Positions 49,277 through 64,000 of a stretch of DNA of 64,000 bases are shown here, in pieces. The notes under the pieces were generated by a model. That model saw only the letters and a program-made list of their open reading frames with translations. It searched no databases and was not told the origin of the DNA. How positions within the stretch are numbered: the stretch's first letter is position 1; each line of letters starts with the position of its first letter. The stretch lies in IMG/VR virus record IMGVR_UViG_3300037249_001000, positions 32,001 to 96,000 of that record, one strand, 5' to 3'. A program made the translations under genes and the position numbers. Source of the stretch: a virus (taxonomy: Duplodnaviria; Caudoviricetes).

Positions 49277-50350
49277 ATGATTAGACATTATGAAGGAAAA
49301 TTAGGAGTATTTGATTATGATGATACTGAATGGGAAATTACAGAAACTGGTAGTAATCCTTATACACATGGTCGCTGTAAAGAAAGTCTTCGCTATATTG
49401 GAGATAAAGTTGAAGGTGAAGATATTATAATTCCCTTTGGAGTTAGTGATTGCTCTTATATGTTTGCAGGGTGCACATCTCTCACAACAGCACCTACGAT
49501 TCCTGAAGGAGTTAGTGATTGTGACTGCATGTTTATGGGGTGTACATCTCTTACAACAGCACCGATTATTCCAGATGGAGTAAGAGCTTGTTCAAGTATG
49601 TTTCATGGGTGTACATCTCTTACAACAGCACCTACGATTCCTGAAGGAGTTAGAGACTGTTGGGCAATGTTTAAGGGGTGCACATCTCTCACAACAGCAC
49701 CTACGATTCCTGAAGGAGTTACTGTTTGTGAATGCATGTTTATGCGGTGTACATCTCTTACAACAGCACCTACGATTCCTGAAGGAGTTAGAGAGTGTTG
49801 GGCAATGTTTGCAGGGTGCACATCTCTCACAACAGCACCTATAATTTCCAAAGGAGTTACTGTTTGTGAATGCATGTTTATGCGGTGTACATCTCTTACA
49901 ACAGTACCTATGATTCCTGAAGAAGTTGTAGACTGTTGGGCAATGTTTAAGGGGTGCACATCTCTCACAACAGCACCTACGATTCCTGAAGGAGTTATTA
50001 ATTGCTCTTATATGTTTGATGGGTGCACATCTCTCACAACAGCACCTACGATTCCTGAAGGAGTTATTGATTGTGACTGCATGTTTTGTGACTGTTCATC
50101 TCTTACAACAGCACCTCAAATTCCCGAAGGAGTTACAGATTGTTCATGGATGTTTAAGGGGTGCACATCTCTCACAACAGCACCTCAAATTCCCACAGGA
50201 GTTAGTGATTGCTCTTATATGTTTGCAGGGTGCACATCTCTCACAACAGCACCTACGATTCCTGAAGGAGTTATTAATTGCTCTTATATGTTTGCAGGGT
50301 GCACATCTCTCACAACAGCACCTGAAATTCCTGAAGCATACACATACTAA
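49277..50350 (+). CDS. BspA/DUF285-like LRR protein with 13 near-identical 23-aa repeats
   Basis: GVxxCxxMFxGCTSLTTAPxIPE x13; GGAG SD before ATG 49277; no signal peptide. Confidence 0.85.
   Translation: MIRHYEGKLGVFDYDDTEWEITETGSNPYTHGRCKESLRYIGDKVEGEDIIIPFGVSDCSYMFAGCTSLTTAPTIPEGVSDCDCMFMGCTSLTTAPIIPDGVRACSSMFHGCTSLTTAPTIPEGVRDCWAMFKGCTSLTTAPTIPEGVTVCECMFMRCTSLTTAPTIPEGVRECWAMFAGCTSLTTAPIISKGVTVCECMFMRCTSLTTVPMIPEEVVDCWAMFKGCTSLTTAPTIPEGVINCSYMFDGCTSLTTAPTIPEGVIDCDCMFCDCSSLTTAPQIPEGVTDCSWMFKGCTSLTTAPQIPTGVSDCSYMFAGCTSLTTAPTIPEGVINCSYMFAGCTSLTTAPEIPEAYTY
49439..50335 (+). repeat. Coding tandem array, 13 x 69 bp
   Basis: Unit core ...TGYACATCTCTYACAACAGCACCTACGATTCCTGAAGGAGTT... Confidence 0.95.
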
Positions 50351-50474
50351 TAATAAAGTTGTACAGATAATAGATTTATTTCTATTATCTGTACAACTTT
50401 TGTTTAAAACTTACTTTGATTATATATTATTTTTTTGTTTTGAAAATGTATTTTAATAAAAAGGAGATAATAAT

Positions 50475-52760
50475 ATGGCAGAAGTACAAAAGTATTCATT
50501 AAAAGAAAAATTAACAGAAGCTGACAAAAGTTTATATAGGTCACCTTCTCTTTATGGTATGAGTGCTTTAACTATACCACGTTACATCAATTCAATGAGG
50601 TCGGTTATGTTTACTAACCACCTCAAACAATTTTTAACTCCACTTGACCCTGATTATCCATTTGTATTTACAAATGCAGAAAATCTTGTTGGTGAACATA
50701 GTAGTGGTTATAGGAGAATAAAACATGAATCCGAAGTATACCGAAAAGTTGTTAAATATGAAGATATACTTGGTAGTGATGCAAACGTATACAAACTTTT
50801 TATTCTTGATAAAAAGAAAAAGAAGTTTGATGTAATTGAAAGAAAAGAAGTTGAAGACCTTACAGAAAATTTCGGTTTTAATTATAATAATGAAGAAATT
50901 GATAAATATTCTGAAGGTGATACTATAAAGAAAGATACCGTTCTTTATAAATCGACTTCTTATGACGATGATATGTTTTATGGTTATGGAAAGAATACAA
51001 CTGTAATGTATACATTAGACCCATATACATCTGAGGATGCAGCAGTTGCTCGCAGAGGTTATGCTGATAACTATAAAACTATTGAAACAGAAGTTATTCA
51101 AATTAAATTAAATGATAATGATTTTCTGTTGAATCTTTATGGTGAGGAAGATGGGGAATATAAACCTCTTCCAGATATTGGTGAAACATGCACTGGCATT
51201 CTTGGTGCAATAAGAACCCAATTCAATGATCAACTACTTTATGATTTTAAATCATCTTCATTAAATAAAATTCATGACGGTGATAGAATTATTTATGTAA
51301 ATGATACAAATGAAATTGTAGATATTACGATATTTTCTAATAACGAAGAAATTGTTGATACAATTTTCAATACTCAAATTAATAAATATCTTGAGTCTCA
51401 AAATAAATATTATCAAGAGATTTATGATACATGTAAAGAAATAGTTGAATTTTGTGATTTTAATGCAGGATATTCATATTCACAAGAAATAGATTATTTG
51501 TATAAACGTTCTGGTGAAATGTTGGATACTAAAAAGAGATGGAAAGAGGGTGACACATCTTTTGCTAATATGGTAATTGAAATAGTCATTCGCAAGGAAG
51601 TTCCTTTACGTAAAGGCTGTAAATTGAGTGGACGCTATGGGAACAAATCCGTTATCTCAGAAATTAGAGACGATGATAAAATGCCATTTACTGAAGATGG
51701 AAAGCCTGTTGATTTACTTCTCAATCTTCTTGCTATTATTAACAGAACAACTTCATTTGCTATCTATGAATTAATTATAACATCTATTTGTTATAAAGTT
51801 CGTCAGAAAATGAAAACATTAAATTCTTATGAAGATAAAGAAAAATTAATGTTCGATATAATTAATGAATTTAACGAAATTCAGTATGAAGACATGATAA
51901 AGAGTTATAACAAATTATCTGATTCTGAAAAGAAATTAGTTATAGATGAAGCAATAACCGAAGGCATCTATATTAATCAGTCACCTGTAAAAGAAACCAA
52001 ACCTATCTTTTATCGAATTAAAGATATTCTTGATAAATATGATTGGCTTCAACCAGATTTTGTATATATTAAAGATAGCAATGGTAGAAAGATTAAAACT
52101 CTTTCTCGTCATTGGATTGGAGATATGTACATTATTAAATTAAAGCAGTCTGATAGAAGAGGATTTAGTGCACGCTCTACTGGTACTGTTGATATTAAGG
52201 GAGTACCAACTCGGTCATTTAAATCGAAAAATCATATGGAAAAACACTCAGATTCTGCGATCCGTTTTGGTGAATCAGAGACATTGAACTTTTCTATAGG
52301 TGTTCCAAGTGAAGATATTGCATTATTTAATTCTGTTTATCGCACATCAATAAAAGGAAGAGAGCAACTTGTAAAAAGTATGTTTAATTTTGATGGAAAG
52401 AATAATGAAAATAAAACTAAAATTGATTCTGCATATACATCTCGTGTTGCAGAAATATTTGCAGTATTCTTTAAATCATTGGGACTTGAAATTGATTTTG
52501 TTGATGAAGATAGCGTTGTACGAGGTTATGATAATAATGAAATTAAACTTCATACTACTGATGATGGGGAAACTCTTCTTTGTACAGATTATGAGTTTTT
52601 CTTGAAACAGAGATATGATGAAATTAAAGAAGAGATTCTTAAAGAAAATATTATTATGACTGATGAACAACTTAAATCAGAAATTGAAGCAAGACTTAAA
52701 GAAAGGAAATTCATTAATGGACCGTTGTATGATGAAGATGGTTCATTATTGTTTGAATAA
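50475..52760 (+). CDS. nvRNAP beta subunit C-terminal half
   Basis: SEDA, KLSGRYGNKSVIS, MPFTEDGKPVDLLLN, YIIKLKQ, RFGESE; early promoter at 50423-50430. Confidence 0.9.
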   Translation: MAEVQKYSLKEKLTEADKSLYRSPSLYGMSALTIPRYINSMRSVMFTNHLKQFLTPLDPDYPFVFTNAENLVGEHSSGYRRIKHESEVYRKVVKYEDILGSDANVYKLFILDKKKKKFDVIERKEVEDLTENFGFNYNNEEIDKYSEGDTIKKDTVLYKSTSYDDDMFYGYGKNTTVMYTLDPYTSEDAAVARRGYADNYKTIETEVIQIKLNDNDFLLNLYGEEDGEYKPLPDIGETCTGILGAIRTQFNDQLLYDFKSSSLNKIHDGDRIIYVNDTNEIVDITIFSNNEEIVDTIFNTQINKYLESQNKYYQEIYDTCKEIVEFCDFNAGYSYSQEIDYLYKRSGEMLDTKKRWKEGDTSFANMVIEIVIRKEVPLRKGCKLSGRYGNKSVISEIRDDDKMPFTEDGKPVDLLLNLLAIINRTTSFAIYELIITSICYKVRQKMKTLNSYEDKEKLMFDIINEFNEIQYEDMIKSYNKLSDSEKKLVIDEAITEGIYINQSPVKETKPIFYRIKDILDKYDWLQPDFVYIKDSNGRKIKTLSRHWIGDMYIIKLKQSDRRGFSARSTGTVDIKGVPTRSFKSKNHMEKHSDSAIRFGESETLNFSIGVPSEDIALFNSVYRTSIKGREQLVKSMFNFDGKNNENKTKIDSAYTSRVAEIFAVFFKSLGLEIDFVDEDSVVRGYDNNEIKLHTTDDGETLLCTDYEFFLKQRYDEIKEEILKENIIMTDEQLKSEIEARLKERKFINGPLYDEDGSLLFE

Positions 52761-52866
52761 TAATTAATTGGTTGGGGCAATAAAAAAATATTGCCCCAAT
52801 TGGTTATATATTATTTTTTGGACTGCGTAGAAATATGTAGAATTTATAAATAAGGAGATAATAATT

Positions 52867-54099
52867 ATGGGTAAGAAACAATCAGTGCATATTAGACGTC
52901 TTAATTGGGACATTTCCTTTTATGCCGATATGCTAGACGGTAACGGATTTCAAATAATTGAACCATCTGGTATTTCGATTAATGGTATGAAGAAAAAATC
53001 ATTATATGGTGCTTCATCACCATTATATGGTACAAGTTATGAAGATGAACAATCGTTTATTGAACGATATAGATGTTCATGTGGTGAATTTAAAGGTAGA
53101 TTATTTGAAGGGGAAGAATGCCCACTTTGTCATACTAAAGTAGAATATAAATCTAGTAATATTAATGTTACTGGATGGATTTCTTTAGGTATTAAAAGAT
53201 GCATTAATCCATACTATTTCAATATTCTTCTTTCAGCAATAGGTAAAAATGTATTTACTGAAATTATATTTAGTAAATATCGTGTTACTACAGACGGTCA
53301 GAGAAAGAAATTAACAGCAGATGACCATATGGATGTAGTACCGGAATCAATTTATTCGTTTATTGGTATGAATGAGTTTTATAATAATTATGAAGAAATT
53401 CTCACATATTTTAAAAATAAGAAGAAAAATAAAGCTCACACTTTTGATGTTTTATTAAAAGAAAAAAGAGCTGTATTTACTTCTCACATACCAGTATATT
53501 CGACAATGTTAAGACCACAATCAATTACATCCGATACATTTTATTTTGGTAGTATTGATAAAATTATTAATACATTATATTCACTTAGTGAACACTTAAA
53601 AGATGCAACAGATGTAGAAGAAGATTATATTCTGGAAAGAATCCAGAAAAAAGTTAATAAAATGTGGGACATTAACCTTGAATTAATCAATGGTAAAGAA
53701 GGATGGGTAAGACATCAATTGCTCGGTGGTTCAATGAACTATACTGCAAGAAATGTAATTATTCCCGATCCGACTCTTCATGATAATGAAGTTGATTTAT
53801 CATATAATACATTTTTGGAGATGTATAAGTATAAGATTATTTATTATATCATGCAACTTGATAATACATCATTGTCCAGAGCATATGAGACATGGAAAGA
53901 TGCATTTAGATTTGATGAAAAAGTGTATCAAATTATGTTACATGTATTGGATAAAGAACAACCAAGATTATTGATAAATCGAAATCCTACATTGAATTAT
54001 TACTCAATGATATTAATGAAAATAAGAACTATTAAAAAAGATATCACCGATTATACCCTGTCAGTTCCGCTTAGCATACTGCCAGGTCTTAATGCGGAT
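52867..54099 (+). CDS. nvRNAP beta' subunit, exon 1 (joined to 54456..56786; about 1187 aa spliced)
   Basis: CSCG...CPLC Zn finger, LRP, GKEGWVR, ARNVI, NRNPTL, GLNAD|FDGD; early promoter at 52807-52814. Confidence 0.9.
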
Positions 54100-54455
54100 C
54101 AACTTTCAAGGTCCGAGAGCACAGTAATGTGTTTCTATGTACGTTGTGAACTCCTAACAAGAGGTGTGACGAAAGTTGCTAACGGTATCAGTTAAATAAG
54201 TCACTTAAGTTTAACTTAAGTAGAGCGAATACACTGACTAAGAAAGCCTGAGGTCCTGAAAAGGATAGCTTGGTAATACCGTGCTGTTATTTTTAAAAGT
54301 GATTTAAAAATAGTAGTGTAGAGACTAACAAAAGCAATTTTAAATTGTAAGTAGGGTAGGTTTTAGTTTGAGGGCTAGAATCGAAGTGCAACGCCCCTAT
54401 ATTAATATAGGGTGAAGATATAGTCCACGCTGTATCGAAAGATATGGGTTTCGTG
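54100..54455 (+). ncRNA. Group I intron (356 nt, no homing endonuclease) splitting NAD|FDGD
   Basis: P1 CGGAU/GUCCG with U.G; P10 UCAAG/UUUGA; R GUAGAGACUA; S GAAGAUAUAGUCC (54414-54426); terminal G; splicing restores NADFDGD. Confidence 0.92.
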
Positions 54456-56786
54456 TTTGACGGTGATATCTTAAATATAATAGGTCTTATGAATAAAGCA
54501 TTTGTATTCATGTTTAGAAAATATGACCCAGTAATGAGAATGATTATTAGTAGAGATTCACGTCTCATCAATGAATACTTTTCTATCAATAAAGGTCAGT
54601 TAATTGATTTGTATACATTTGCAACTTATGATGGTGAAGATGGTTGTAATACTGAAGAATATTATCCTGAAGAAGAAACTATTCAGAAAGATAAGTTTAG
54701 TCTTTTAGTAGATTCACCTATTATAAATAATACAAGAGAATTAAAAGCATGGTTAAAAGATATATATATCTTAGAGGATTATTTAGAGTCATATGAACAA
54801 TATAGAATATTCCAGACTAAGATTTATAATATTCTTAAAGGCTGTTTTGTAATTCCTCAGTGTAGAGATTATCCTATAAGATTTAAATTTACGGCTAATT
54901 CAAAAGAATATGTATTACCATTAAGATTGTTTATAATAAATACTATTCTTTGGTATCCATTTGTAGAACTTAATGGAATAAATGTTTTAGATGAATCGTT
55001 TATCATATTTAATCCAGAAGTATTACCTAATATTGAAAATTATCTTAATGATAATTTAATTAGTATCCTTACTGAGTATCATGTTAAGCCTTCAAGTATG
55101 AACTATGCTATTTCAGAAGTTTTGTACAATCTTAGAGGTATTTCTAATGATTATTCTATTATTCTTGGTTTGGATTTTAATATTCCTATGTTTACAAAAC
55201 TTTATTCTGAAAATGATAGAATACGAGAAATAATGGAGTGTCATTTTGAAAATGATGCTCAACCACATGAAATTGAACAAGAATTATCTGTATTGGAAAA
55301 GGAATTTATCGGTATTGTTACTGGATTGAAAGATAACCATTTAGGTATTGCATTAAGAGCTCAAACAGGTATTAAACATAAACAGCTTACAGAGTTTGCA
55401 ATATCTGAAGGACTTAAACCAGATATATCTGGTAGAACTATTCCAATTCCAATTCAAACATCAACATTGATTGGTGGTACTAATACACCTAGTGCACAAT
55501 ATATTGATGCAGCTGCAGCTCGTAAGTCATTGATTATGAATAAAAAGGTTATGGGTATTGCAGGTCATTTTGGTAAAACAGTTCTTATGAGTGCTCGTAC
55601 TCTTAGTATGAGTACAGAAGTCTCAGATTGTGGAACAAAACATCTGGTTGCTTATGATGTTTTGAATAAAACTATTCTTAAGAAACTTACTGGTAAATTT
55701 TATAGACTTACAGATGACCCTGAAGAAGAATTAAAACTTCTTAATGCAAAGAAAGATAAAAATCTTATAGGTAAGACAATTTATGTACGTTCCGCTGCAA
55801 CATGTGCTTGTAGAAATCAACATCATGTATGTGCTAAATGTGTTGGATTAACTGCTGTAATTAATGCAGATATTTCAGATGGTATTTCAGCATTTGAATC
55901 AGAAGAAATTACAAAAGTTGTTAATCAGAATATTCTTTCTGCAAAACATTTGTTGTCAACAAATTCTGAAGAGATTAAATTCAATAAAGAATTTTATGAT
56001 TTCTTTACAATTGTAGGTGGTGAAATAAATCCGATTGTTAATGAAAATTCTAATGTTAATATAAAGGATTATGCTATTTATGTTGACCCAAGTGATATTG
56101 TAAAGATGGAAGAAATGGATGATGATTCATTGTACAATACAGTTATTGAAACTGGTAGATTCTTCATTCGTAATATCAATGATCCATCTGAACCTGATAT
56201 TGTTATTCAAGTAGAGGGTGAGAAAGAAATCTTTATAGAGGAAAGTATATTGGCTTTATTAAGATCTGGTAATAACATGATTAAGTTTACAGACCTTGAA
56301 GATGATGATAAACTCTTTGAAGTTATTATTATGAATAATGAGTTGACAAAACCATTGTATGAGTTGATGCATTTGTTGGATAAACAGAGTAAGGATACTA
56401 TTAATATTGATATTGATTATATTAGTAATAAATTCCTTAGTTTGGTAATTGATGCAAAGATAGATGTATCTGCTATCGCATGTGAGCTTATTATTAATAG
56501 ACTTATTCGTTCAGCTGAAGATATTTATCGCCGTCCTGATTTCTCAAAGGATACGTTAGAACCATATGTAATTTTTACAGTGAGAAAATCATTGGAAAAG
56601 AATCCATCACCTTTGATGGGGATAGGTTTCCAGAATATTAAACGTCAGTTGTTATCGAATGATTTGTTTGAAAAGAGAACTGAAACATCATATATTGATA
56701 ACTTCTTTAAACCAACAATATCAACGGAGAATTTGTCTAAATATGCTGTTTATTATGATGAAAACTCATTAAACAGTCCTAAATAA
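54456..56786 (+). CDS. nvRNAP beta' subunit, exon 2
   Basis: FDGD, ARKSL...AGHFGK (bridge-helix-like), DCGT, RSAATC...CAKC, QNILSAKH (trigger-loop-like). Confidence 0.88.
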   Translation, partial: FDGDILNIIGLMNKAFVFMFRKYDPVMRMIISRDSRLINEYFSINKGQLIDLYTFATYDGEDGCNTEEYYPEEETIQKDKFSLLVDSPIINNTRELKAWLKDIYILEDYLESYEQYRIFQTKIYNILKGCFVIPQCRDYPIRFKFTANSKEYVLPLRLFIINTILWYPFVELNGINVLDESFIIFNPEVLPNIENYLNDNLISILTEYHVKPSSMNYAISEVLYNLRGISNDYSIILGLDFNIPMFTKLYSENDRIREIMECHFENDAQPHEIEQELSVLEKEFIGIVTGLKDNHLGIALRAQTGIKHKQLTEFAISEGLKPDISGRTIPIPIQTSTLIGGTNTPSAQYIDAAAARKSLIMNKKVMGIAGHFGKTVLMSARTLSMSTEVSDCGTKHLVAYDVLNKTILKKLTGKFYRLTDDPEEELKLLNAKKDKNLIGKTIYVRSAATCACRNQHHVCAKCVGLTAVINADISDGISAFESEEITKVVNQNILSAKHLLSTNSEEIKFNKEFYDFFTIVGGEINPIVNENSNVNIKDYAIYVDPSDIVKMEEMDDDSLYNTVIETGRFFIRNINDPSEPDIVIQVEGEKEIFIEESILALLRSGNNMIKFTDLEDDDKLFEVIIMNNELTKPLYELMHLLDKQSKDTINIDIDYISNKFLSLVIDAKIDVSAIACELIINRLIRSAEDIYRRPDFSKDTLEPYVIFTVRKSLEKNPSPLMGIGFQNIKRQLLSNDLFEKRTETSYIDNFFKPTISTENLSKYAVYYDENSLNSPK

Positions 56787-56919
56787 TTTTTCATTTAATA
56801 GTAACAGTATAATAAAAAAATCTTTTTGTTTTTCAAATGACATTACCTTCCTAAATAATTATAAAAAAAGAAAGATATGATACTGACCATCATATCTTTC
56901 TTTTTTCTTTTACCCATAA

Positions 56920-56931
56920 AACATTAGAATA
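56920..56931 (+). promoter_or_regulatory. AR9-type late promoter heading the 56966-61949 operon
   Basis: AACA TTAGAA TA. Confidence 0.55.
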
Positions 56932-56965
56932 AACCAGATTATATCAAAATAAAGAAGGTGACTTA

Positions 56966-57844
56966 ATGTATAATTTTGATAATGATCTAATAGACAAATA
57001 TGAACAGATTAAACATAAAATTTATGTTGAATATTGTAATAATAATATCACCCTTAATCAAAGAGAGATATTACTTAAACGTGCTCAAAATGATATTTTT
57101 AATAATGAATTTAATTTTATAATCGAATCTGATGAAAATGGAACTTCATCAGATATCATAGAACAAAAGCAATTAAAATCTATGGCAATAGGTAGAATGT
57201 TAGGAAAATTAGCATCAGAAAAAAAAGATTTGATCGAAGAATCAATAAAAAATATAGATGAAGAAAAACGAAACGATATTCATTTTATTTTTTTAAATCG
57301 TGACGATGAAGTTAATTCAATTATAAAAATATTAGATTATTTTTATAAATTTATTACAGATCCATCTAGTGATTCCGAAAATTATAATCATAGAAAAGAT
57401 GATTTAATTGCTGAATTAAATCATTCTTGTAAAAATGTTAAAATTGAATCATATTCGATAAATTCATATATTAATAAATTTAAGGTAGAATTTAATGATT
57501 CTGAAATTAATCAGTATGAAAAAAAGTATAATATGGCTTTTAGTAGTTCACATATAAAAGATATTTTAGAAAAATATCCAGATAATGTCGCAATTATTAA
57601 AAATTCATATACTGATTTTTTTCGTTGGTTTGATGTATTACTTGGATATAAGAATATGTATTTTAACCAAATGTGTAGATCAGTAAAAATTTCAGAAATA
57701 TATCAGAATCAATTATATGAAGATTATAATAATAACAAGAGTTCTTATAGTGATTTAAGAAGTGGTAACACATTATTACAAAAATTATTTCAATCAGTTT
57801 ATAAAGAATATTATGATGTTATTAATTCAAAATTTGAATATTAG
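56966..57844 (+). CDS. Probable virion/internal head protein with SHOCT-like leader
   Basis: KIYVEYCNNNITLNQREILL...FIIE-SD. Confidence 0.55.
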   Translation: MYNFDNDLIDKYEQIKHKIYVEYCNNNITLNQREILLKRAQNDIFNNEFNFIIESDENGTSSDIIEQKQLKSMAIGRMLGKLASEKKDLIEESIKNIDEEKRNDIHFIFLNRDDEVNSIIKILDYFYKFITDPSSDSENYNHRKDDLIAELNHSCKNVKIESYSINSYINKFKVEFNDSEINQYEKKYNMAFSSSHIKDILEKYPDNVAIIKNSYTDFFRWFDVLLGYKNMYFNQMCRSVKISEIYQNQLYEDYNNNKSSYSDLRSGNTLLQKLFQSVYKEYYDVINSKFEY

Positions 57845-57856
57845 AGGTGATAGTTT

Positions 57857-58324
57857 ATGACTCAAAAAGATCTTGTTATATTAGAAATATATAATAGATA
57901 TTCTCGTGGAGAAATAACGACCGAACAACGTGATTTATTATTTGATAAATGTGAAGAAGTATTTGATGAAAAAGGTTTGTTTAGTAAGAAAACAAATCCA
58001 TATGCTCAAGCATTTATGGATGATAATAATAAATTTATGCAAGACCAATTAAAACAACGTCAAGCTGCTGTATCACAATTACAAAGTTTAAATAGTACTT
58101 TAAAAAATCAAGAAAATAGTTCTAATAATAGATATTCTATGAGTAAATATGAATATGAATTAAAAAATCTTGATATGCAAATAAAAATGTGCAAAGAAAA
58201 AATGAAGAATCCATCTTCTAAAGAAGAAAAAAAGAAATTAGTTGATACTTTAAAAAATCTTACAACAGAATATAGACAAAAACAAAATGAATATAAAAAA
58301 ATACAAAAACAAGCAAAGAGGTGA
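57857..58324 (+). CDS. Probable internal head protein with SHOCT-like leader and coiled coil
   Basis: LEIYNRYSRGEITTEQRDLLFDKCEEVFDE. Confidence 0.6.
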   Translation: MTQKDLVILEIYNRYSRGEITTEQRDLLFDKCEEVFDEKGLFSKKTNPYAQAFMDDNNKFMQDQLKQRQAAVSQLQSLNSTLKNQENSSNNRYSMSKYEYELKNLDMQIKMCKEKMKNPSSKEEKKKLVDTLKNLTTEYRQKQNEYKKIQKQAKR

Positions 58325-58330
58325 TTTTTA

Positions 58331-59530
58331 ATGGAGAACCTATACGATATCAGTAAAGAAATTAGAATACTTGATAGTGAAATAAATCGATATTCTTTTT
58401 TATTAGAATCGGATGAAAGTACTATTGATAATTATTATTTAACTGGTGATTCTTTATTTATAGAAGCTGATGATTCTAATAAGAGACCATCTATTTTAGC
58501 TTCAATAATCAATGCAATTAAAAGATTTATTACAAAATGTAAAGCTAAATTTTTTAAATTAATTGGATCTGATAAATATAAAGAATATGAAAAAGAGTTA
58601 TCTGAAAATAAAAAACTTGCTAATAAAGAGGTTAAGTATAATCCTAGAACTAAAGAATTTGATGTTATTAATAAAGATACAAAAGATATTAATGAAATAA
58701 TCAATAAAATTAAAAATGGAACAGCAACTGATGAAGAAATTTCAAGATTAGAAGAGCAAGTTCATAAGCATAAAGGATTAAATATAGGAGGGATTGCAGC
58801 AGGTGCAGGATTAACCGCATTTACTTTATATCAATTATTTAGTGAAGTCAAAAAAAGACAAAATGAAAAAGAAAAAATAACTGACGCTGATTTTCAGTTT
58901 ATATATCAGCCGAGTTTATTAGATCCGAATAAAACAGCGTTTTCTGATGAGCAGATTAGACAACTCCAAAAAGCATTTGCAATTGCTAAAGAAAATATTG
59001 AAGAACGAAATACCTTACTTTTGAAAACACAACAAGATATGGATGCTATATTAGATAGTGAAATGAAAGAACTTTTATCAGCACATGCTGAATCATCGTA
59101 TGACGCACGAAAACTTGCTGAAAAACAAGTTGGTATTGGTAAGAAATTTAAAGAAAATAAAAATAATGATATTAATAAATTTAGAAATCAACACATATCT
59201 AGTGATAATCAATTAAATAATTATGATAATGATATTAAAAATAAGTCTAATACAGAAAAACAAAATATAGCAAGAAAATTAAGAAATGAAATTGATGAAA
59301 ATGATGATTATATGCATTCTAAAAGTTTAAAACAAAATTTAAAAGATAAAGCTAATGTTGCAGCAGATCATATCATTTATCATGCGGATTATAAACAAGA
59401 AAAAGAAAAAGAGAGAGAAGACGCTAAAGAACGAAAAAAGAAAGAAAAAGAAAGAAAACGTGCAGCTAAAGAAGAAAATAATAAAATGAAAAGAATGTTT
59501 AGAGAGGGTGTTAATTATTATGATGACTAA
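58331..59530 (+). CDS. Probable internal head/ejected protein
   Basis: FLLE-SD and LFIE-AD sites, amphipathic ILASIINAIKRFI helix, GGIAAGAGLTAF segment, coiled coils. Confidence 0.55.
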   Translation: MENLYDISKEIRILDSEINRYSFLLESDESTIDNYYLTGDSLFIEADDSNKRPSILASIINAIKRFITKCKAKFFKLIGSDKYKEYEKELSENKKLANKEVKYNPRTKEFDVINKDTKDINEIINKIKNGTATDEEISRLEEQVHKHKGLNIGGIAAGAGLTAFTLYQLFSEVKKRQNEKEKITDADFQFIYQPSLLDPNKTAFSDEQIRQLQKAFAIAKENIEERNTLLLKTQQDMDAILDSEMKELLSAHAESSYDARKLAEKQVGIGKKFKENKNNDINKFRNQHISSDNQLNNYDNDIKNKSNTEKQNIARKLRNEIDENDDYMHSKSLKQNLKDKANVAADHIIYHADYKQEKEKEREDAKERKKKEKERKRAAKEENNKMKRMFREGVNYYDD

Positions 59531-61205
59531 AGAAGAAAAAAATTCCATTGCTTCTATTATTTATGAAAGATATTCTGTTGGAGAAATTTCATTAGATGAA
59601 CGAGAGGATTTACTTAAAGAATTAAATAATAAATATATAAAAGAGAATACTCTTGTAGAAGATTTTGAAATAGACGAAGATGTTTTGGATAAATTGAATA
59701 TGTTTAAGGAATCAGTATACGATAAGTATGCTAGAGGTGAAATTACATTAGAAACAAGAGAAAAATTAATTACTAGAGCTAACGAAGAATTTGCTGATAT
59801 GTATATGGAGTCGGACCAAGTAAATATCTTTAAGAAAAAAATGGATGAACTCCGAAGAAAAAATTCACATAAACGTGATGATTTTAAAAAGAAAAAAATG
59901 AATAAATTTAATAATAATGCTATTGCTGCTATAAAACAAATTATAGAAAAGAATGAACGTAATTTAAAAGGTTTAATTTTTTGCTATCCTCATTATACTC
60001 ATTTAATGAGAAAAGATGCGGCAGACGCTGTTAAACAACTTCGTGACATTATTGAAGAAATCGATCCTGTACAAAAAAGTGTAGAAGAAAATAAAGATGT
60101 TGTTAATAAATATAAAAAAACATCTGATGAAATTGGAAAAACATTTAAAAAATACGAAGAAGGAATTAAGGGTTATATGATACAAGTTCATGTTGGTGAA
60201 TTTTATAAAAATTTATGTGAATTTGCTAAACATATGACAGACGATATTAACTGGTTAGAATCAATAGATAAAAATATGTACGACATTGTGACAGCCAGAT
60301 CTAAAAAAATTAAAGATAAAGCGATATATAATGCATTAAATTCTATGTATTCTGATTATTGTCAATTCTCTTTATTTATATTAGATTTATATACGACAGA
60401 AATTTATTCTTATCTTAGAGGTATAAGCATTTTAAATAAATATAATAAACAGCATAAAGAACATGAATTGACCCCTGAAGCTCAACGTATAAAAAATGTT
60501 GATAACGATCCAATGTTGAATAGTTTGATGAAAAAAGGTTCTAAGAATAAAAATGGATATTATTTAGATTTTACTGATGATAGTAATCCGAAAGATAGTT
60601 ATACTACAAGAAAGTATAATTTATACACAAATGACAGTGATGACCATATAAAAGAGTCCGCTTATGAAAGATATTACAATGGTGAAATTTCTTTGGATGA
60701 ATTTATTACAGAGGGATTTATTAAAACAAAAATAGATGAAATAAAAGCAAAGAAAGATAAGAAAAATGAACTAGAAATTGAGTATTCTATTAAAAACGCG
60801 GCATCATCTGATTTAGATAAATTTTATAAAAATTGTGATTTTGCTATATTTACAAATAAAAAATTTAATGATAAAGATGCTAAAAATTTATCAAAAAAGT
60901 TATATAGTATAGATGGTTTTAATAAATCTATAAAAACAATTAATTTCTTTATAGTTGATGGAAAAACCATGAATAAAAAGTATGATTTAAATGCTTCGAA
61001 ATATAAAGATAATGATATATTAATTATTTTTCCATTAAATTTATTTAAAACAACTAATAGTATAGTTATAGCTAAGCAAATGACAAATTCAAGATATTTT
61101 AATGATATCGTTGATAATAATGAATACAGAGAAGTTCAAGCTGGTCATCATAAAATGAGTGAACAGGTTGAACATATTGATAAATATTTTAAATCATTAA
61201 AATAA
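59523..61205 (+). CDS. Probable internal head protein with three SHOCT-like repeats
   Basis: IYERYSVGEISLDERE, VYDKYARGEITLETRE, AYERYYNGEISLDE. Confidence 0.6.
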   Translation: MTKEEKNSIASIIYERYSVGEISLDEREDLLKELNNKYIKENTLVEDFEIDEDVLDKLNMFKESVYDKYARGEITLETREKLITRANEEFADMYMESDQVNIFKKKMDELRRKNSHKRDDFKKKKMNKFNNNAIAAIKQIIEKNERNLKGLIFCYPHYTHLMRKDAADAVKQLRDIIEEIDPVQKSVEENKDVVNKYKKTSDEIGKTFKKYEEGIKGYMIQVHVGEFYKNLCEFAKHMTDDINWLESIDKNMYDIVTARSKKIKDKAIYNALNSMYSDYCQFSLFILDLYTTEIYSYLRGISILNKYNKQHKEHELTPEAQRIKNVDNDPMLNSLMKKGSKNKNGYYLDFTDDSNPKDSYTTRKYNLYTNDSDDHIKESAYERYYNGEISLDEFITEGFIKTKIDEIKAKKDKKNELEIEYSIKNAASSDLDKFYKNCDFAIFTNKKFNDKDAKNLSKKLYSIDGFNKSIKTINFFIVDGKTMNKKYDLNASKYKDNDILIIFPLNLFKTTNSIVIAKQMTNSRYFNDIVDNNEYREVQAGHHKMSEQVEHIDKYFKSLK

Positions 61206-61226
61206 TGAAGAAAGGGATGAGATAAT

Positions 61227-61949
61227 ATGAACCTTTCTGAAGTTATAACTCGTATTAAATTAAAATTAGGTATTATGAATATTGCTGCTCCAATACAAAA
61301 TCTCGATGGTACTATTTCAACTATTATTAAAGAAATAACTATTCCAGATTTTTCTTTGTATAATCCCGATAAACAAAATATTCGTTTAGAATTAAAGGAT
61401 TTAGAAAGATTAGAACATACAAATAGTTACGATACATATCTTTTACCTGATTTTAAAACGAAGAAATTGTTATATGTATTTAATGTATACTATGATGATT
61501 CTACATTAGCAGGATTTGGTCATTATGGTGGAGCATTACCTATGGTAGGTGGTCATATGATGGCTCAAGCTTTATCATCTAATGCTGCTGCTAATTTATA
61601 TAATTTAATGATGCCTAAGATGACATTTGAATATATTCATCCACGGCGTATTAAAATATTTAATCAATATTCAGAATCTAAATTAGTTTTTGAATTAGGA
61701 TTCCAACATGATGTATCATTAGCATCTATTCCTGAAACATGCAGAACTTCTTTTATGGAATTAGCTTTACTTGATGTTAAAGAAAATTTATATCCTATTT
61801 TTAAAAATTATACAAATTTGTCAACCGCTATTGGTAATATTGATTTAAAGATAGAATCATGGGAATCAGCAGAAAGTGACCGTAAAGAATTAATTAATAC
61901 ATGGAACAATAGTTATCATTTAGATTTTACACCAATGTATTATGCTTAA
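61227..61949 (+). CDS. Probable virion structural (neck/head-completion-like) protein
   Basis: Last gene of the late operon; RIKLKLG start, ASIPETCR..FMELALLDVK. Confidence 0.45.
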   Translation: MNLSEVITRIKLKLGIMNIAAPIQNLDGTISTIIKEITIPDFSLYNPDKQNIRLELKDLERLEHTNSYDTYLLPDFKTKKLLYVFNVYYDDSTLAGFGHYGGALPMVGGHMMAQALSSNAAANLYNLMMPKMTFEYIHPRRIKIFNQYSESKLVFELGFQHDVSLASIPETCRTSFMELALLDVKENLYPIFKNYTNLSTAIGNIDLKIESWESAESDRKELINTWNNSYHLDFTPMYYA

Positions 61950-61958
61950 ATATAAAAA

Positions 61959-61997
61959 TATGAAGACAAGTATGGATTATCCATACTTGTCTTCATA
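61959..61997. terminator. Terminator between the late operon and the convergent tRNA cluster
   Basis: TATGAAGACAAGTATGGAT / ATCCATACTTGTCTTCATA. Confidence 0.8.
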
Positions 61998-62055
61998 AAT
62001 AGGAAAATTAAAAGCGGTTTACTATAGGAAATAATAATATAGAAATTCTGTAACG

Positions 62056-62144
62056 TGGTGCCGGTGACGAGATTTGAACTCGTACGGGTTATACAATCCG
62101 AGGGATTTTAAGTCCCTTGTGTCTGCCTATTCCACCACACCGGC
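62056..62144 (-). tRNA. tRNA-Leu(UAA)
   Basis: GCCGGTG acceptor, CT-TAA-AA loop, long variable arm, TTCAAAT T-loop, encoded CCA. Confidence 0.93.
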
Positions 62145-62176
62145 AAATATTTATTTCCTATGTATATATAATTAAG

Positions 62177-62248
62177 CTGGGCTGGCGAGATTCGAACTCA
62201 CGGATGACGGAGTCAAAGTCCGTTGCCTTACCACTTGGCGACAGCCCA
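62177..62248 (-). tRNA. tRNA-Gln(UUG)
   Basis: TGGGCTG/CAGCCCA acceptor, CT-TTG-AC loop, TTCGAAT. Confidence 0.93.
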
Positions 62249-62269
62249 TTATATTAGATGTTTTACTAA

Positions 62270-62335
62270 TGACTCAGTTGGATCTACGTATAGGATATAG
62301 GAGTTGTCAAATAATATATCTAACCAACTGAGTCA
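62270..62335 (-). ncRNA. Structured RNA candidate within the tRNA cluster
   Basis: 12-bp TGACTCAGTTGG/CCAACTGAGTCA stem enclosing a GATATA/TATATC stem. Confidence 0.3.
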
Positions 62336-62367
62336 AATTTTTCATTACGACTCTCTATTGAGTTGTA

Positions 62368-62443
62368 TGGTGAACCATCGGAGATTCGAACTCCGGACAC
62401 CTTGATTAAAAGTCAAGTGCTCTGCCTACTGAGCTAATGATTC
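62368..62443 (-). tRNA. tRNA-Lys(UUU)
   Basis: CTTGA-CTTTTAA-TCAAG anticodon arm, encoded CCA. Confidence 0.93.
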
Positions 62444-62452
62444 ATATAATAG

Positions 62453-62527
62453 TGCAGCCTCAGGGACTCGAACCCTGGACCAACCGGTTATGAGCCGGTA
62501 GCTCTAACCAAACTGAGCTAAGGCTAC
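62453..62527 (-). tRNA. tRNA with CAU anticodon, probably Ile2 (lysidine type)
   Basis: ACCGG-CTCATAA-CCGGT arm resembles Firmicute tRNA-Ile2; no initiator GGG/CCC. Confidence 0.85.
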
Positions 62528-62541
62528 ATTTTTTTTGTCAT

Positions 62542-62553
62542 TACTTTTATGTT
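62542..62553 (-). promoter_or_regulatory. AACA-N6-TA promoter heading the tRNA cluster
   Basis: AACA TAAAAG TA, about 15 nt before the first tRNA. Confidence 0.5.
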
Positions 62554-62726
62554 ATGTTATAAATAATTTTTTATTTAATTAAATTATTTATTTTCGAGAT
62601 TAATTATGTGTTAGTACTATAATAAAAAATTATTCGTTTTTATTATAAGAGAAATATTTTAAATATTGAAAAATAAAAAATGAAGCTACACTTATTTAAC
62701 CAAAAATGAACGAGGTGATAATATAA

Positions 62727-63962
62727 ATGACAAATATAAATCACAAAGATCTTATTATATTAGAAATATATAATAGATATTCTCGTGGAGAAATAACAAC
62801 CGAAGAACGTAATATGTTATTTAATAAATGTGATGAAGTATTTAATGAAGCTGGTAATATATTACTTAATGAAGATAGAGTAGAATATAATTGTGATACA
62901 TTGAGACCCAATTCAAATAATAATATTTTATTTATTACCGGATTTTCTGGTTCGGGTAAATCAACGTTGATGGACGAACTTTATCAAAAATATCAAGATA
63001 AAATTATTATGGTTTCAGGTGATTTCTTTTTTATGACATGTAGATATAAGTATAGAAAAGATATGTCAGCAAAATATGGAAATAAAAATTTTAATTTTAA
63101 CAGAAATGAAAAATTTGGTTTCGATAGTGAAAAAAGTAGACAGTTTCTTGGACCTATAATAACTAGATATTTTGATATCTACTATGATTCAATCACACTA
63201 TCATATGACAAATTTAGTAATCCAGAATTAATAAAATATTGGGAACATTTTGTTCTTTGGTTATATGATGATATCAATAAAAATAAATATTTATACAGAG
63301 ATAAAATTATTGTTGCAGAAGGAACGCAAATCTGCAATTCAAACCCAGAATTATATAAAGATCATGCAGTAATAATTACAGGAACATCTGCATTGGTTTC
63401 ATATGCTCGTAAAGCTAATAGAGATATCATTATCCCTAAAAAATATGATTGGAAACATATGAAAACATTATTAACAATGATTCCTGTATATATAAAAGAT
63501 ATGGGAAATATAAATAGATTACAAAAAACTATGGAAATGTTTGATGAATCTACTAAATATGATAAATATTTAAATGATGTGAATGAAATAATATCTAAAC
63601 TATCTAAAGAAGAATCAAATTATATTGGCAGAGGACAATGGGTTGATTCTGAATATGTTATATATAGAAAAGTTGAATATAACGATAATATACCAATAGC
63701 TTTTATTGATGTATATTTGATGCCTAAATATGAAAATACCGGATTAATAGTTATTGCTGTTTCTAAAGATGCTCGTGGTAAAGGTATTGGAAAGAAACTT
63801 GTGAAAGGAGCTATTAATTCTCTTAAAAGTAATAAAGATATTGATAGATTACGATGGAAAGTTGATTCTAATAATAAAATATCTATAAATATGGCAGAAT
63901 CGTTAGGTTTCGAATTATCTGAAACTACTAAAAAGGAAAAAATTTATTATTATAATTTATAA
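62727..63962 (+). CDS. SHOCT-like leader + P-loop kinase + GNAT acetyltransferase fusion
   Basis: Leader 91% identical (nt) to the 57857 gene; GFSGSGKST and IVAEG; AVSKDARGKGIGKKL and NKISINMAESLGF; TACA-N6-TA at 62687-62698. Confidence 0.75.
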   Translation: MTNINHKDLIILEIYNRYSRGEITTEERNMLFNKCDEVFNEAGNILLNEDRVEYNCDTLRPNSNNNILFITGFSGSGKSTLMDELYQKYQDKIIMVSGDFFFMTCRYKYRKDMSAKYGNKNFNFNRNEKFGFDSEKSRQFLGPIITRYFDIYYDSITLSYDKFSNPELIKYWEHFVLWLYDDINKNKYLYRDKIIVAEGTQICNSNPELYKDHAVIITGTSALVSYARKANRDIIIPKKYDWKHMKTLLTMIPVYIKDMGNINRLQKTMEMFDESTKYDKYLNDVNEIISKLSKEESNYIGRGQWVDSEYVIYRKVEYNDNIPIAFIDVYLMPKYENTGLIVIAVSKDARGKGIGKKLVKGAINSLKSNKDIDRLRWKVDSNNKISINMAESLGFELSETTKKEKIYYYNL

Positions 63963-63980
63963 AGTAAAGGAGATATAATT

Positions 63981-64000
63981 ATGAATGATTTTTATTGTGA
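63981..64000 (+). CDS. Start of the next gene (truncated by the window)
   Basis: AAAGGAG SD then ATG AAT GAT... Confidence 0.55.

Follow-up and report, generated by a model that had tools for sequence, protein, structure and literature searches.

Why should four dissimilar phage proteins, encoded close together, carry one and the same short segment? We addressed this question for a 64,000-nucleotide (nt) window of viral DNA, bases 32001 to 96000 of one 139,539-bp linear IMG/VR contig, in which a module of about 45 residues recurs in genes located between positions 56966 and 63962. A sequence-only reading of the window had taken this segment for a SHOCT-like leader that ends at a putative prohead protease site and may load cargo into the virion. 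We tentatively interpret the module as a cleavable prohead-targeting cassette, in which the capsid-targeting principle of phage T4 would be carried out by a folded, repeatable SHOCT-like hairpin; we put this at slightly short of an even chance. The contig has a G+C content of ~25% and a completeness of 58% (CheckV). Its split RNA polymerase (RNAP) subunits share 25 to 28% identity with their counterparts in Bacillus phages AR9 and PBS1, in Staphylococcus jumbo phages, and in phiR1-37, and the source is therefore predicted to be an uncultured AR9/phiKZ-like giant gut phage, represented by a partial genome.

Six module copies in four neighboring proteins

Six copies of the module were found in four neighboring plus-strand proteins and none elsewhere in the 139.5-kb contig. 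The exact pattern Y..Y..GEI[TS] had five matches in the whole contig (one in gp57857, three in gp59508, and one in gp62727), and the looser copy in gp56966 scored 70 bits with a hidden Markov model (HMM) of the copies, the next best six-frame match in the contig scoring 8.6 bits. The four proteins did not align to one another outside the module, in agreement with the earlier claim of a motif shared by otherwise unrelated proteins. The possibility that gp56966 and gp59508 are paralogues was rejected, as their alignment covers the module alone. The description of the module as a purely N-terminal leader did not hold: all four window proteins do carry the tag at the N terminus, but gp59508 has a further, internal copy (amino acids [aa] 372 to 415), many copies in the wider family are C-terminal, and most distant members carry the module internally or at the C terminus. 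The features of the locus, in window positions and with arrows marking putative cut sites, are as follows.

56863 to 56907: hairpin with a T-run after the RNAP subunit gene, terminator-like; upstream boundary of the operon
56920 to 56931, plus strand: exact AACA-N6-TA, 46 nt before the ATG of 56966
56966 to 57844, plus strand: gp56966 (292 aa); loose module at aa 6 to 50 (56981 to 57115), then FIIE↓SD at aa 52 to 57
57857 to 58324, plus strand: gp57857 (155 aa); module at aa 1 to 41 (57857 to 57979) ending in VFDE, then a coiled-coil-like tail
58331 to 59530, plus strand: gp58331 (399 aa), module-less; FLLE↓SDE at aa 23 to 29 and FIE↓A at about aa 44
59508 to 61205, plus strand: gp59508 (565 aa from a GTG); modules at 59520 to 59651, 59676 to 59807, and 60621 to 60752
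61227 to 61949, plus strand: gp61227, homologue of the AR9 "virion protein" g112 as well as of phrog_18911 ("virion structural protein"); final operon gene
61959 to 61997: 18-bp hairpin terminator; end of the operon
62687 to 62698, plus strand: variant TACA-N6-TA, 40 nt before the ATG of 62727
62727 to 63962, plus strand: gp62727 (411 aa); module at aa 1 to 44 (62727 to 62858) ending in VFNE; P-loop NTPase-like region and GNAT acetyltransferase after it

The module-less gp58331 has a hydrophobic segment near aa 160 to 180. In gp59508, for which the sequence-only reading had used an alternative ATG at 59523, YME↓SD follows module 2 and FITE↓G follows module 3. At 18 and 23 nt downstream of gp62727 are a thioredoxin-like gene and the gene for the anaerobic ribonucleotide reductase NrdD (L176, contig positions 95981 to 98277), odd company for a presumed virion cargo protein.

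The consensus of AR9 late promoters is AACA-N6-TA (PMC5312081). In the contig, this motif was 3.8 times denser in noncoding than in coding DNA, and in the sense orientation it was upstream of 32 genes, compared with 12 in the antisense control, mostly 33 to 53 nt before the start codon. All of the tag-bearing genes had been placed behind late promoters. An exact motif does precede 56966, but it is the single one for the whole operon (56966 to 61949), which lies between the two hairpin terminators, and 62727 has only the variant TACA-N6-TA, one base off the consensus.

A metagenomic module family with diverse partners

A profile built from the six copies was searched against 1.84 billion representative proteins, and 116 protein clusters were retrieved at an E value of ≤1e-3, 26 of them at ≤1e-10. 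All family members were metagenomic and without a functional name, and the known contigs were phage sized (up to 297 kb); three other IMG/VR contigs of 67 to 155 kb, G001 to G003, also carry the module. The usual arrangement was a tandem pair of modules, positioned N-terminally, internally, or 30 to 55 residues from the C terminus in proteins of up to 1,959 aa, and about 15 clusters were mini-proteins of 95 to 128 aa with two modules and nothing else. The partners in distant members included GNAT, P-loop kinase-like, transglutaminase-like, HAD, NUDIX, and TPR regions. The profile scan that had been proposed for finding the tag fused to diverse domains thus succeeded, with GNAT, P-loop, SUKH, HAD, NUDIX, and transglutaminase-like partners.

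Among 185 modules, the core was strongly conserved at Tyr0 (182), Gly6 (170), Ile8 (173), Arg13 (171), and Glu14 (164), and position 3 was Cys or Tyr. The near invariance of Y0, G6, I8, R13, and E14 fits a specific conserved partner.

Other searches returned little. A pattern scan of bacterial and archaeal genomes yielded no true module among the 120 matches listed, only weak archaeal look-alikes. A DNA search against GenBank phages gave tRNA matches only, no IMG/VR relatives were found with gp57857, gp61227, P0090, and P0046 as queries, and a metagenome scan with P0037 gave no match. A degenerate DNA pattern revealed one syntenic relative of 2 kb.

Predicted fold and kinship to SHOCT

AlphaFold modeling of a two-module protein gave, for each module, a 16-residue helix (residues 3 to 18), a five-residue turn, and a 19-residue helix (residues 24 to 42), with a predicted local distance difference test (pLDDT) score of >90, and a disordered linker between the modules. 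The module is accordingly modeled as a helix-loop-helix hairpin of ~45 residues. The model of gp62727 was unusable (mean pLDDT, 38). No Pfam or PHROGs model matched the module in searches with whole proteins and single modules, Foldseek with the two-module model returned only generic hairpins (E > 1), and the ESM Atlas gave no usable structural match.

With respect to SHOCT, the Pfam model (PF09851) had no match at E ≤ 10 for the six window copies and none in the whole contig, and among retrieved proteins of at least 200 aa it matched 2 of 61. These two, the only retrieved proteins to pass, were P0117 (42 bits) and P0127 (33 bits), which are true SHOCT-repeat proteins by the Pfam gathering score of 27 bits and which the six-copy profile retrieved from the 1.84 billion proteins at E values of 1.6e-5 and 6.6e-5, respectively. 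Since the profile retrieves true SHOCT proteins, the module family is best described as a divergent, distant SHOCT relative, with kinship at the profile level only. The label "SHOCT-like" therefore stood as a statement of profile-level homology and failed as a match of the window copies to the Pfam model. Like SHOCT, the module is a short, ungapped helix-turn-helix core with a conserved turn Gly; both have two amphipathic helices and a conserved Gly-x-Ile-Thr turn, and both occur, mostly terminally, in many unrelated architectures. Unlike SHOCT, the module has Arg13/Glu14 in place of the Glu-aromatic pair, and its helices are longer. The function of SHOCT is not known; binding and localization have been raised as options, and the sole published oligomerization test was negative (PMC3581485).

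Glutamate border motifs flank the module

Recurring aromatic-x(1-2)-E sites had been noted in these proteins. All of those listed (FIIE-S, YME-S, FITE-G, FIE-A, FLLE-S, and FFTE-S) were present in the translations, and the class of site exceeded the shuffle expectation. The pattern hydrophobic-hydrophobic-x-E-S-[DE] occurred 16 times in the genome, compared with 4.3 ± 2.2 in shuffles, and 12 times in the first 100 residues, compared with 1.4 ± 1.2; 0 of 300 shuffles reached either 16 (whole proteins) or 12 (first 100 residues). When all 400 dipeptides following hydrophobic-hydrophobic-x in the first 100 residues were scanned, ES ranked top, with 29 sites against 10.1 expected (z = 5.8). These 29 N-terminal sites were concentrated in late genes, with 22 in the 57 genes of late-motif operons and 2 in the 42 early-only genes.

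The borders of the module were then analyzed in the cluster representatives from the profile search, using the motif [hydrophobic/A/T]-x-E-[SAG]. Ahead of the first non-N-terminal module, at a distance of 8 to 30 residues, the motif was found in 52 of 73 cases (26% expected), and past the core Tyr, at a distance of 22 to 36 residues, in 82 of 154 cases (18% expected), although the representatives are not fully independent and the binomial P values are thereby inflated. KES alone preceded 29 of the 73 modules (4% expected). With Asp or Lys at P1 in the same patterns, no enrichment was seen before or after the modules. A Glu site between tag and cargo is thus present as a predicted sequence feature. 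Two site-bearing proteins showed a corresponding division: gp21827 matches a PHROG virion structural family at residues 217 to 296 only, downstream of FFTE↓S at residues 215 to 219, and a 342-aa protein has such a match at residues 32 to 335 only, downstream of LME↓SD at residues 16 to 20.

Sites of the phiKZ type, [ASG]-x-E-[SAG], were considered and rejected; they are depleted in the genome (42 versus 66.5 expected), P3 being hydrophobic instead.

Elsewhere in the contig (132003 to 137241, L164 and L165), four paralogues were observed, one of which matches the virion structural family phrog_23545. A conserved YK-(V/I)-(V/I)-(T/K)-E↓SGTKED at residues 41 to 55 is common to three of the paralogues, and the fourth has LME↓SD near residue 20.

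A head protease and its neighborhood

The contig gene at L001:1360-2241 (contig positions 125046 to 125927) encodes a protein matching phrog_3014 (E value of 1.8e-18) and phrog_207 (1.3e-10); Pfam Peptidase_S77 scored 17 bits, under the cutoff. From these matches, the product is predicted to be a T4 gp21/phiKZ gp175-type head maturation protease, and the gene is among the 32 with a sense late motif upstream. The protease contains YKE↓S ~85 residues and (I/L)ME↓SFDL ~47 residues from its C terminus, the latter being invariant between proteases that are 50% identical, and the two are candidate self-cleavage sites. The T4 prohead protease cuts after L/I-x-E. In phage SPN3US, gp245 removes its own C-terminal propeptide, and propeptide cleavage follows A-x-E, Ser being the P1' residue (PMC10052503); in T4, the capsid-targeting sequence is removed by gp21 (PMC7411985).

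Virion gene context was read for this operon and for G001 to G003. The phrog_3014 protease was present in all three of these other module-bearing contigs, with a gene for a module protein of 953 to 966 aa located ~1 kb from it. In AR9, g112, the homologue of gp61227, is a neighbor of g114 (prohead protease) and g117 (major head protein).

A conserved family of 480 to 960 aa (P0160 [L024:3884-6745], P0051, P0052, and P0065) was also observed beside the head protease on three IMG/VR giant-phage contigs. Its layout is a module, a hydrophobic membrane-like segment, AKE↓S, a second module, and coiled-coil repeats; the partial genome studied here yielded no full homologue.

Portability and recombination

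The segments 57866 to 57970 and 62745 to 62849 were confirmed to be identical at 96 of 105 nt, with the identity stopping exactly at VFDE/VFNE; flanking 15-nt blocks matched at 1 to 7 of 15 positions. Seven of the eight differing codons were nonsynonymous, mostly of the Asp/Asn and Glu/Gln types, and the two genes have a ribosome-binding site in common. In close relatives, a leader 85 to 98% identical was found on P-loop plus GNAT, P-loop alone, GNAT alone, SUKH (an immunity-type domain), and coiled-coil proteins, and the gp62727/gp57857-type leader also preceded other, unassigned tails. Within the gp59508 family, module 3 is followed either by a 147-aa domain, as here, or by a domain of ~280 to 340 aa with HExxH, the switch point being exactly after FITE. 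P0019 and P0020 are deletion variants that fuse module 2 to module 3, and the leader of P0029 is a chimera of two leader types. Junctions directly after FITE, VIE, and VF(D/N)E were recorded.

The intermodule deletions, like the chimeric leader, suggest that the modules are sites of recombination, and the P0029 chimera also suggests ongoing gene conversion. Together with the near-identical leader on different domains, these variants support the prediction that the tag is portable and recombinationally mobile.

A possible prohead-targeting cassette

From the family and its partners, the statistics of the border motif, the traces of recombination, the gene for the protease, and the head gene neighborhood, we infer prohead binding, cleavage, packaging, and injection of the module proteins, as follows. 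Late in infection, the hairpin would dock onto a conserved part of the prohead core during its assembly, and the fused domain, whether GNAT, P-loop, SUKH, HAD, or another, would be packaged along with it. The gp21/gp175-type protease would then cut after Glu in the hydrophobic-x-Glu↓Ser/Ala/Gly motifs flanking each module, freeing the cargo and breaking the tags into small acidic peptides. The repeated modules may serve as homology patches, with recombination swapping the cargo behind them.

We favor a cleavable prohead-targeting cassette because the borders are Glu specific on both sides of the module, Asp and Lys being flat, and because the ES motif marks the N termini of late-operon proteins. 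The head protease is encoded here and, in G001 to G003, beside a module protein; the operon ends in a homologue of an AR9-type virion protein, and the six copies are clustered in four adjacent proteins. The partners are of the effector type, as in polyvalent proteins thought to be packaged, and two site-bearing proteins match virion PHROGs only after the site. Finally, there are precedents in the T4 capsid-targeting sequence with gp21 and in the SPN3US propeptides.

In T-even phages, the tag region of the internal protein (IP) loci is a hot spot of cargo exchange. The T4 sequence, found on IPI to IPIII and Alt, resembles the module in being a short tag shared by unrelated proteins and followed by a hydrophobic-x-Glu site (PMC7411985), and the protease that removes it, gp21, is of the same family as that of the contig. 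It differs in being 10 to 20 residues long, single, and strictly N-terminal, whereas the module is a folded hairpin of ~45 residues, often in tandem, at either end or internal, and with sites on both sides; this comparison is one of organization alone. The head and ejection propeptides of phiKZ, 201phi2-1, and SPN3US likewise come from giant phages with multisubunit RNAPs and a gp175/gp245-type protease that cuts after Glu with Ser favored at P1', and multiple cuts are made in their long propeptides (PMC10052503). In contrast to the hydrophobic P3 seen here, P3 in those phages is Ala, Ser, or Gly, and their propeptides are not a shared portable domain.

The small helical elements that load fused cargo into a shell in other systems, namely, the C-terminal helix-turn-helix of P22 scaffolding protein and the cargo-loading peptides of encapsulins, lack flanking protease sites, and no sequence or fold match to the module was obtained. 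Polyvalent proteins combine several effector-type domains in one late phage protein, which is presumably packaged and injected, and the GNAT, peptidase-like, and nucleotide-acting domain types on module proteins resemble theirs (PMC5512222). At least two conflict-type domains near virion genes, the mark of that class, were found in gp62727 (P-loop plus GNAT), and P0090, P0120, and P0046, of 1,170 to 1,959 aa, have GNAT plus other regions. No MuF, portal, or MPTase domain appeared in any Pfam scan of module proteins, and, in contrast to polyvalent proteins and to MuF-fused toxins, what the proteins described here have in common is the hairpin module.

Several observations weigh against the prohead-targeting cassette. 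The enrichment of hydrophobic-hydrophobic-x-ES was not replicated in G001, a distant relative with 37% G+C, in which only hydrophobic-KES was enriched (15 versus 8.0). The Ser after Glu may be a helix cap, and the linkers are rich in Glu and Ser, so that part of the signal may be structural; an excess of two- to fourfold is suggested by a rough hand estimate from column frequencies rather than by a computed test. The site motif was partly chosen after examples had been seen, while the 400-dipeptide scan is free of that bias. The many small two-module-only proteins are hard to explain by a pure tag, and gp62727 heads the thioredoxin-like/NrdD operon with only a variant late motif. Furthermore, a tblastn search of 50,697 phage records with gp59508, P0064, and P0058 gave no match, cultured AR9-like phages being without the module.

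The main rival is a general docking or localization domain of the SHOCT type that acts independently of the capsid and joins late accessory enzymes to one another, to an adaptor, or to the membrane, the Glu-Ser borders being uncut caps and linkers. We consider this unlikely but deserving of serious weight. The profile link to true SHOCT proteins fits it, as does the suggested role of SHOCT in binding or localization (PMC3581485); tandem pairs and free two-module mini-proteins resemble adaptors, hydrophobic membrane-like segments occur in several module proteins, and gp62727 belongs to the NrdD operon. Such a domain would, however, leave unexplained the enrichment of Glu, but not of Asp or Lys, on both sides of the module, the same motif at the N termini of module-less late-operon proteins, and the placement beside head protease and virion protein genes, and the lone published SHOCT oligomerization test was negative (PMC3581485).

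It is improbable that the module is instead a removable prodomain or safety catch, keeping host-directed enzymes inactive until the head protease removes it and having no role in targeting. The cargo does consist of potentially self-harmful enzymes, and protease-type border motifs are present, but inhibition of proteins as different as the GNAT, P-loop, HAD, SUKH, and coiled-coil ones by a single small hairpin is unlikely. Tandem pairs at the C terminus are >1,000 residues away from the catalytic domains, free mini-proteins exist, and the predicted linker is disordered. That the segment has no common function and is a recent duplication or gene conversion patch at the 5' ends of neighboring genes, for which the 96/105-nt identity, the shared ribosome-binding site, and the chimeric P0029 leader could be cited, is scarcely credible, being contradicted by the same near-invariant residues in 116 clusters, at identities down to <30% and on many architectures.

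How giant phages choose the dozens of proteins that are packed and ejected is an open question, and the roles of the SPN3US propeptides have been stated to be unknown (PMC10052503). It is possible, if doubtful, that a SHOCT-derived hairpin with head protease sites is a general cargo-loading signal in a large, uncultured clade of giant gut phages. In that case, a module scan would read the injected effector set of such phages from sequence alone, a role as docking or localization tag would be the first concrete function for the SHOCT superfamily, and a transplantable tag would be available for loading proteins into giant-phage capsids. A portable, cleanly delimited module with predicted cut sites would make the question of protein selection experimentally simple. 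It also offers a sequence handle on injected counterdefense enzymes in uncultured phages and a possible function for a superfamily that is widespread and functionally unexplained.

Other features of the window

An Rfam scan of positions 54000 to 64000 identified four tRNAs only. Within a minus-strand tRNA cluster, a long inverted repeat (gactcagttgg ... ccaactgagtc) at 62249 to 62367 separates tRNA-Gln from tRNA-Lys and has no tRNA or Rfam call. A 250-nt noncoding gap between two RNAP subunit genes (54196 to 54443), relatively G+C rich as judged by eye, contains no early motif, exact late motif, or Rfam match. The AR9 early-promoter core ATATATTAT recurs upstream of early-type genes, e.g., the RNAP subunit genes 50475 and 52867; this core has been kept in a distant gut phage, at 50350 to 50474 and 52760 to 52866 of the window, ahead of the RNAP beta-type genes.

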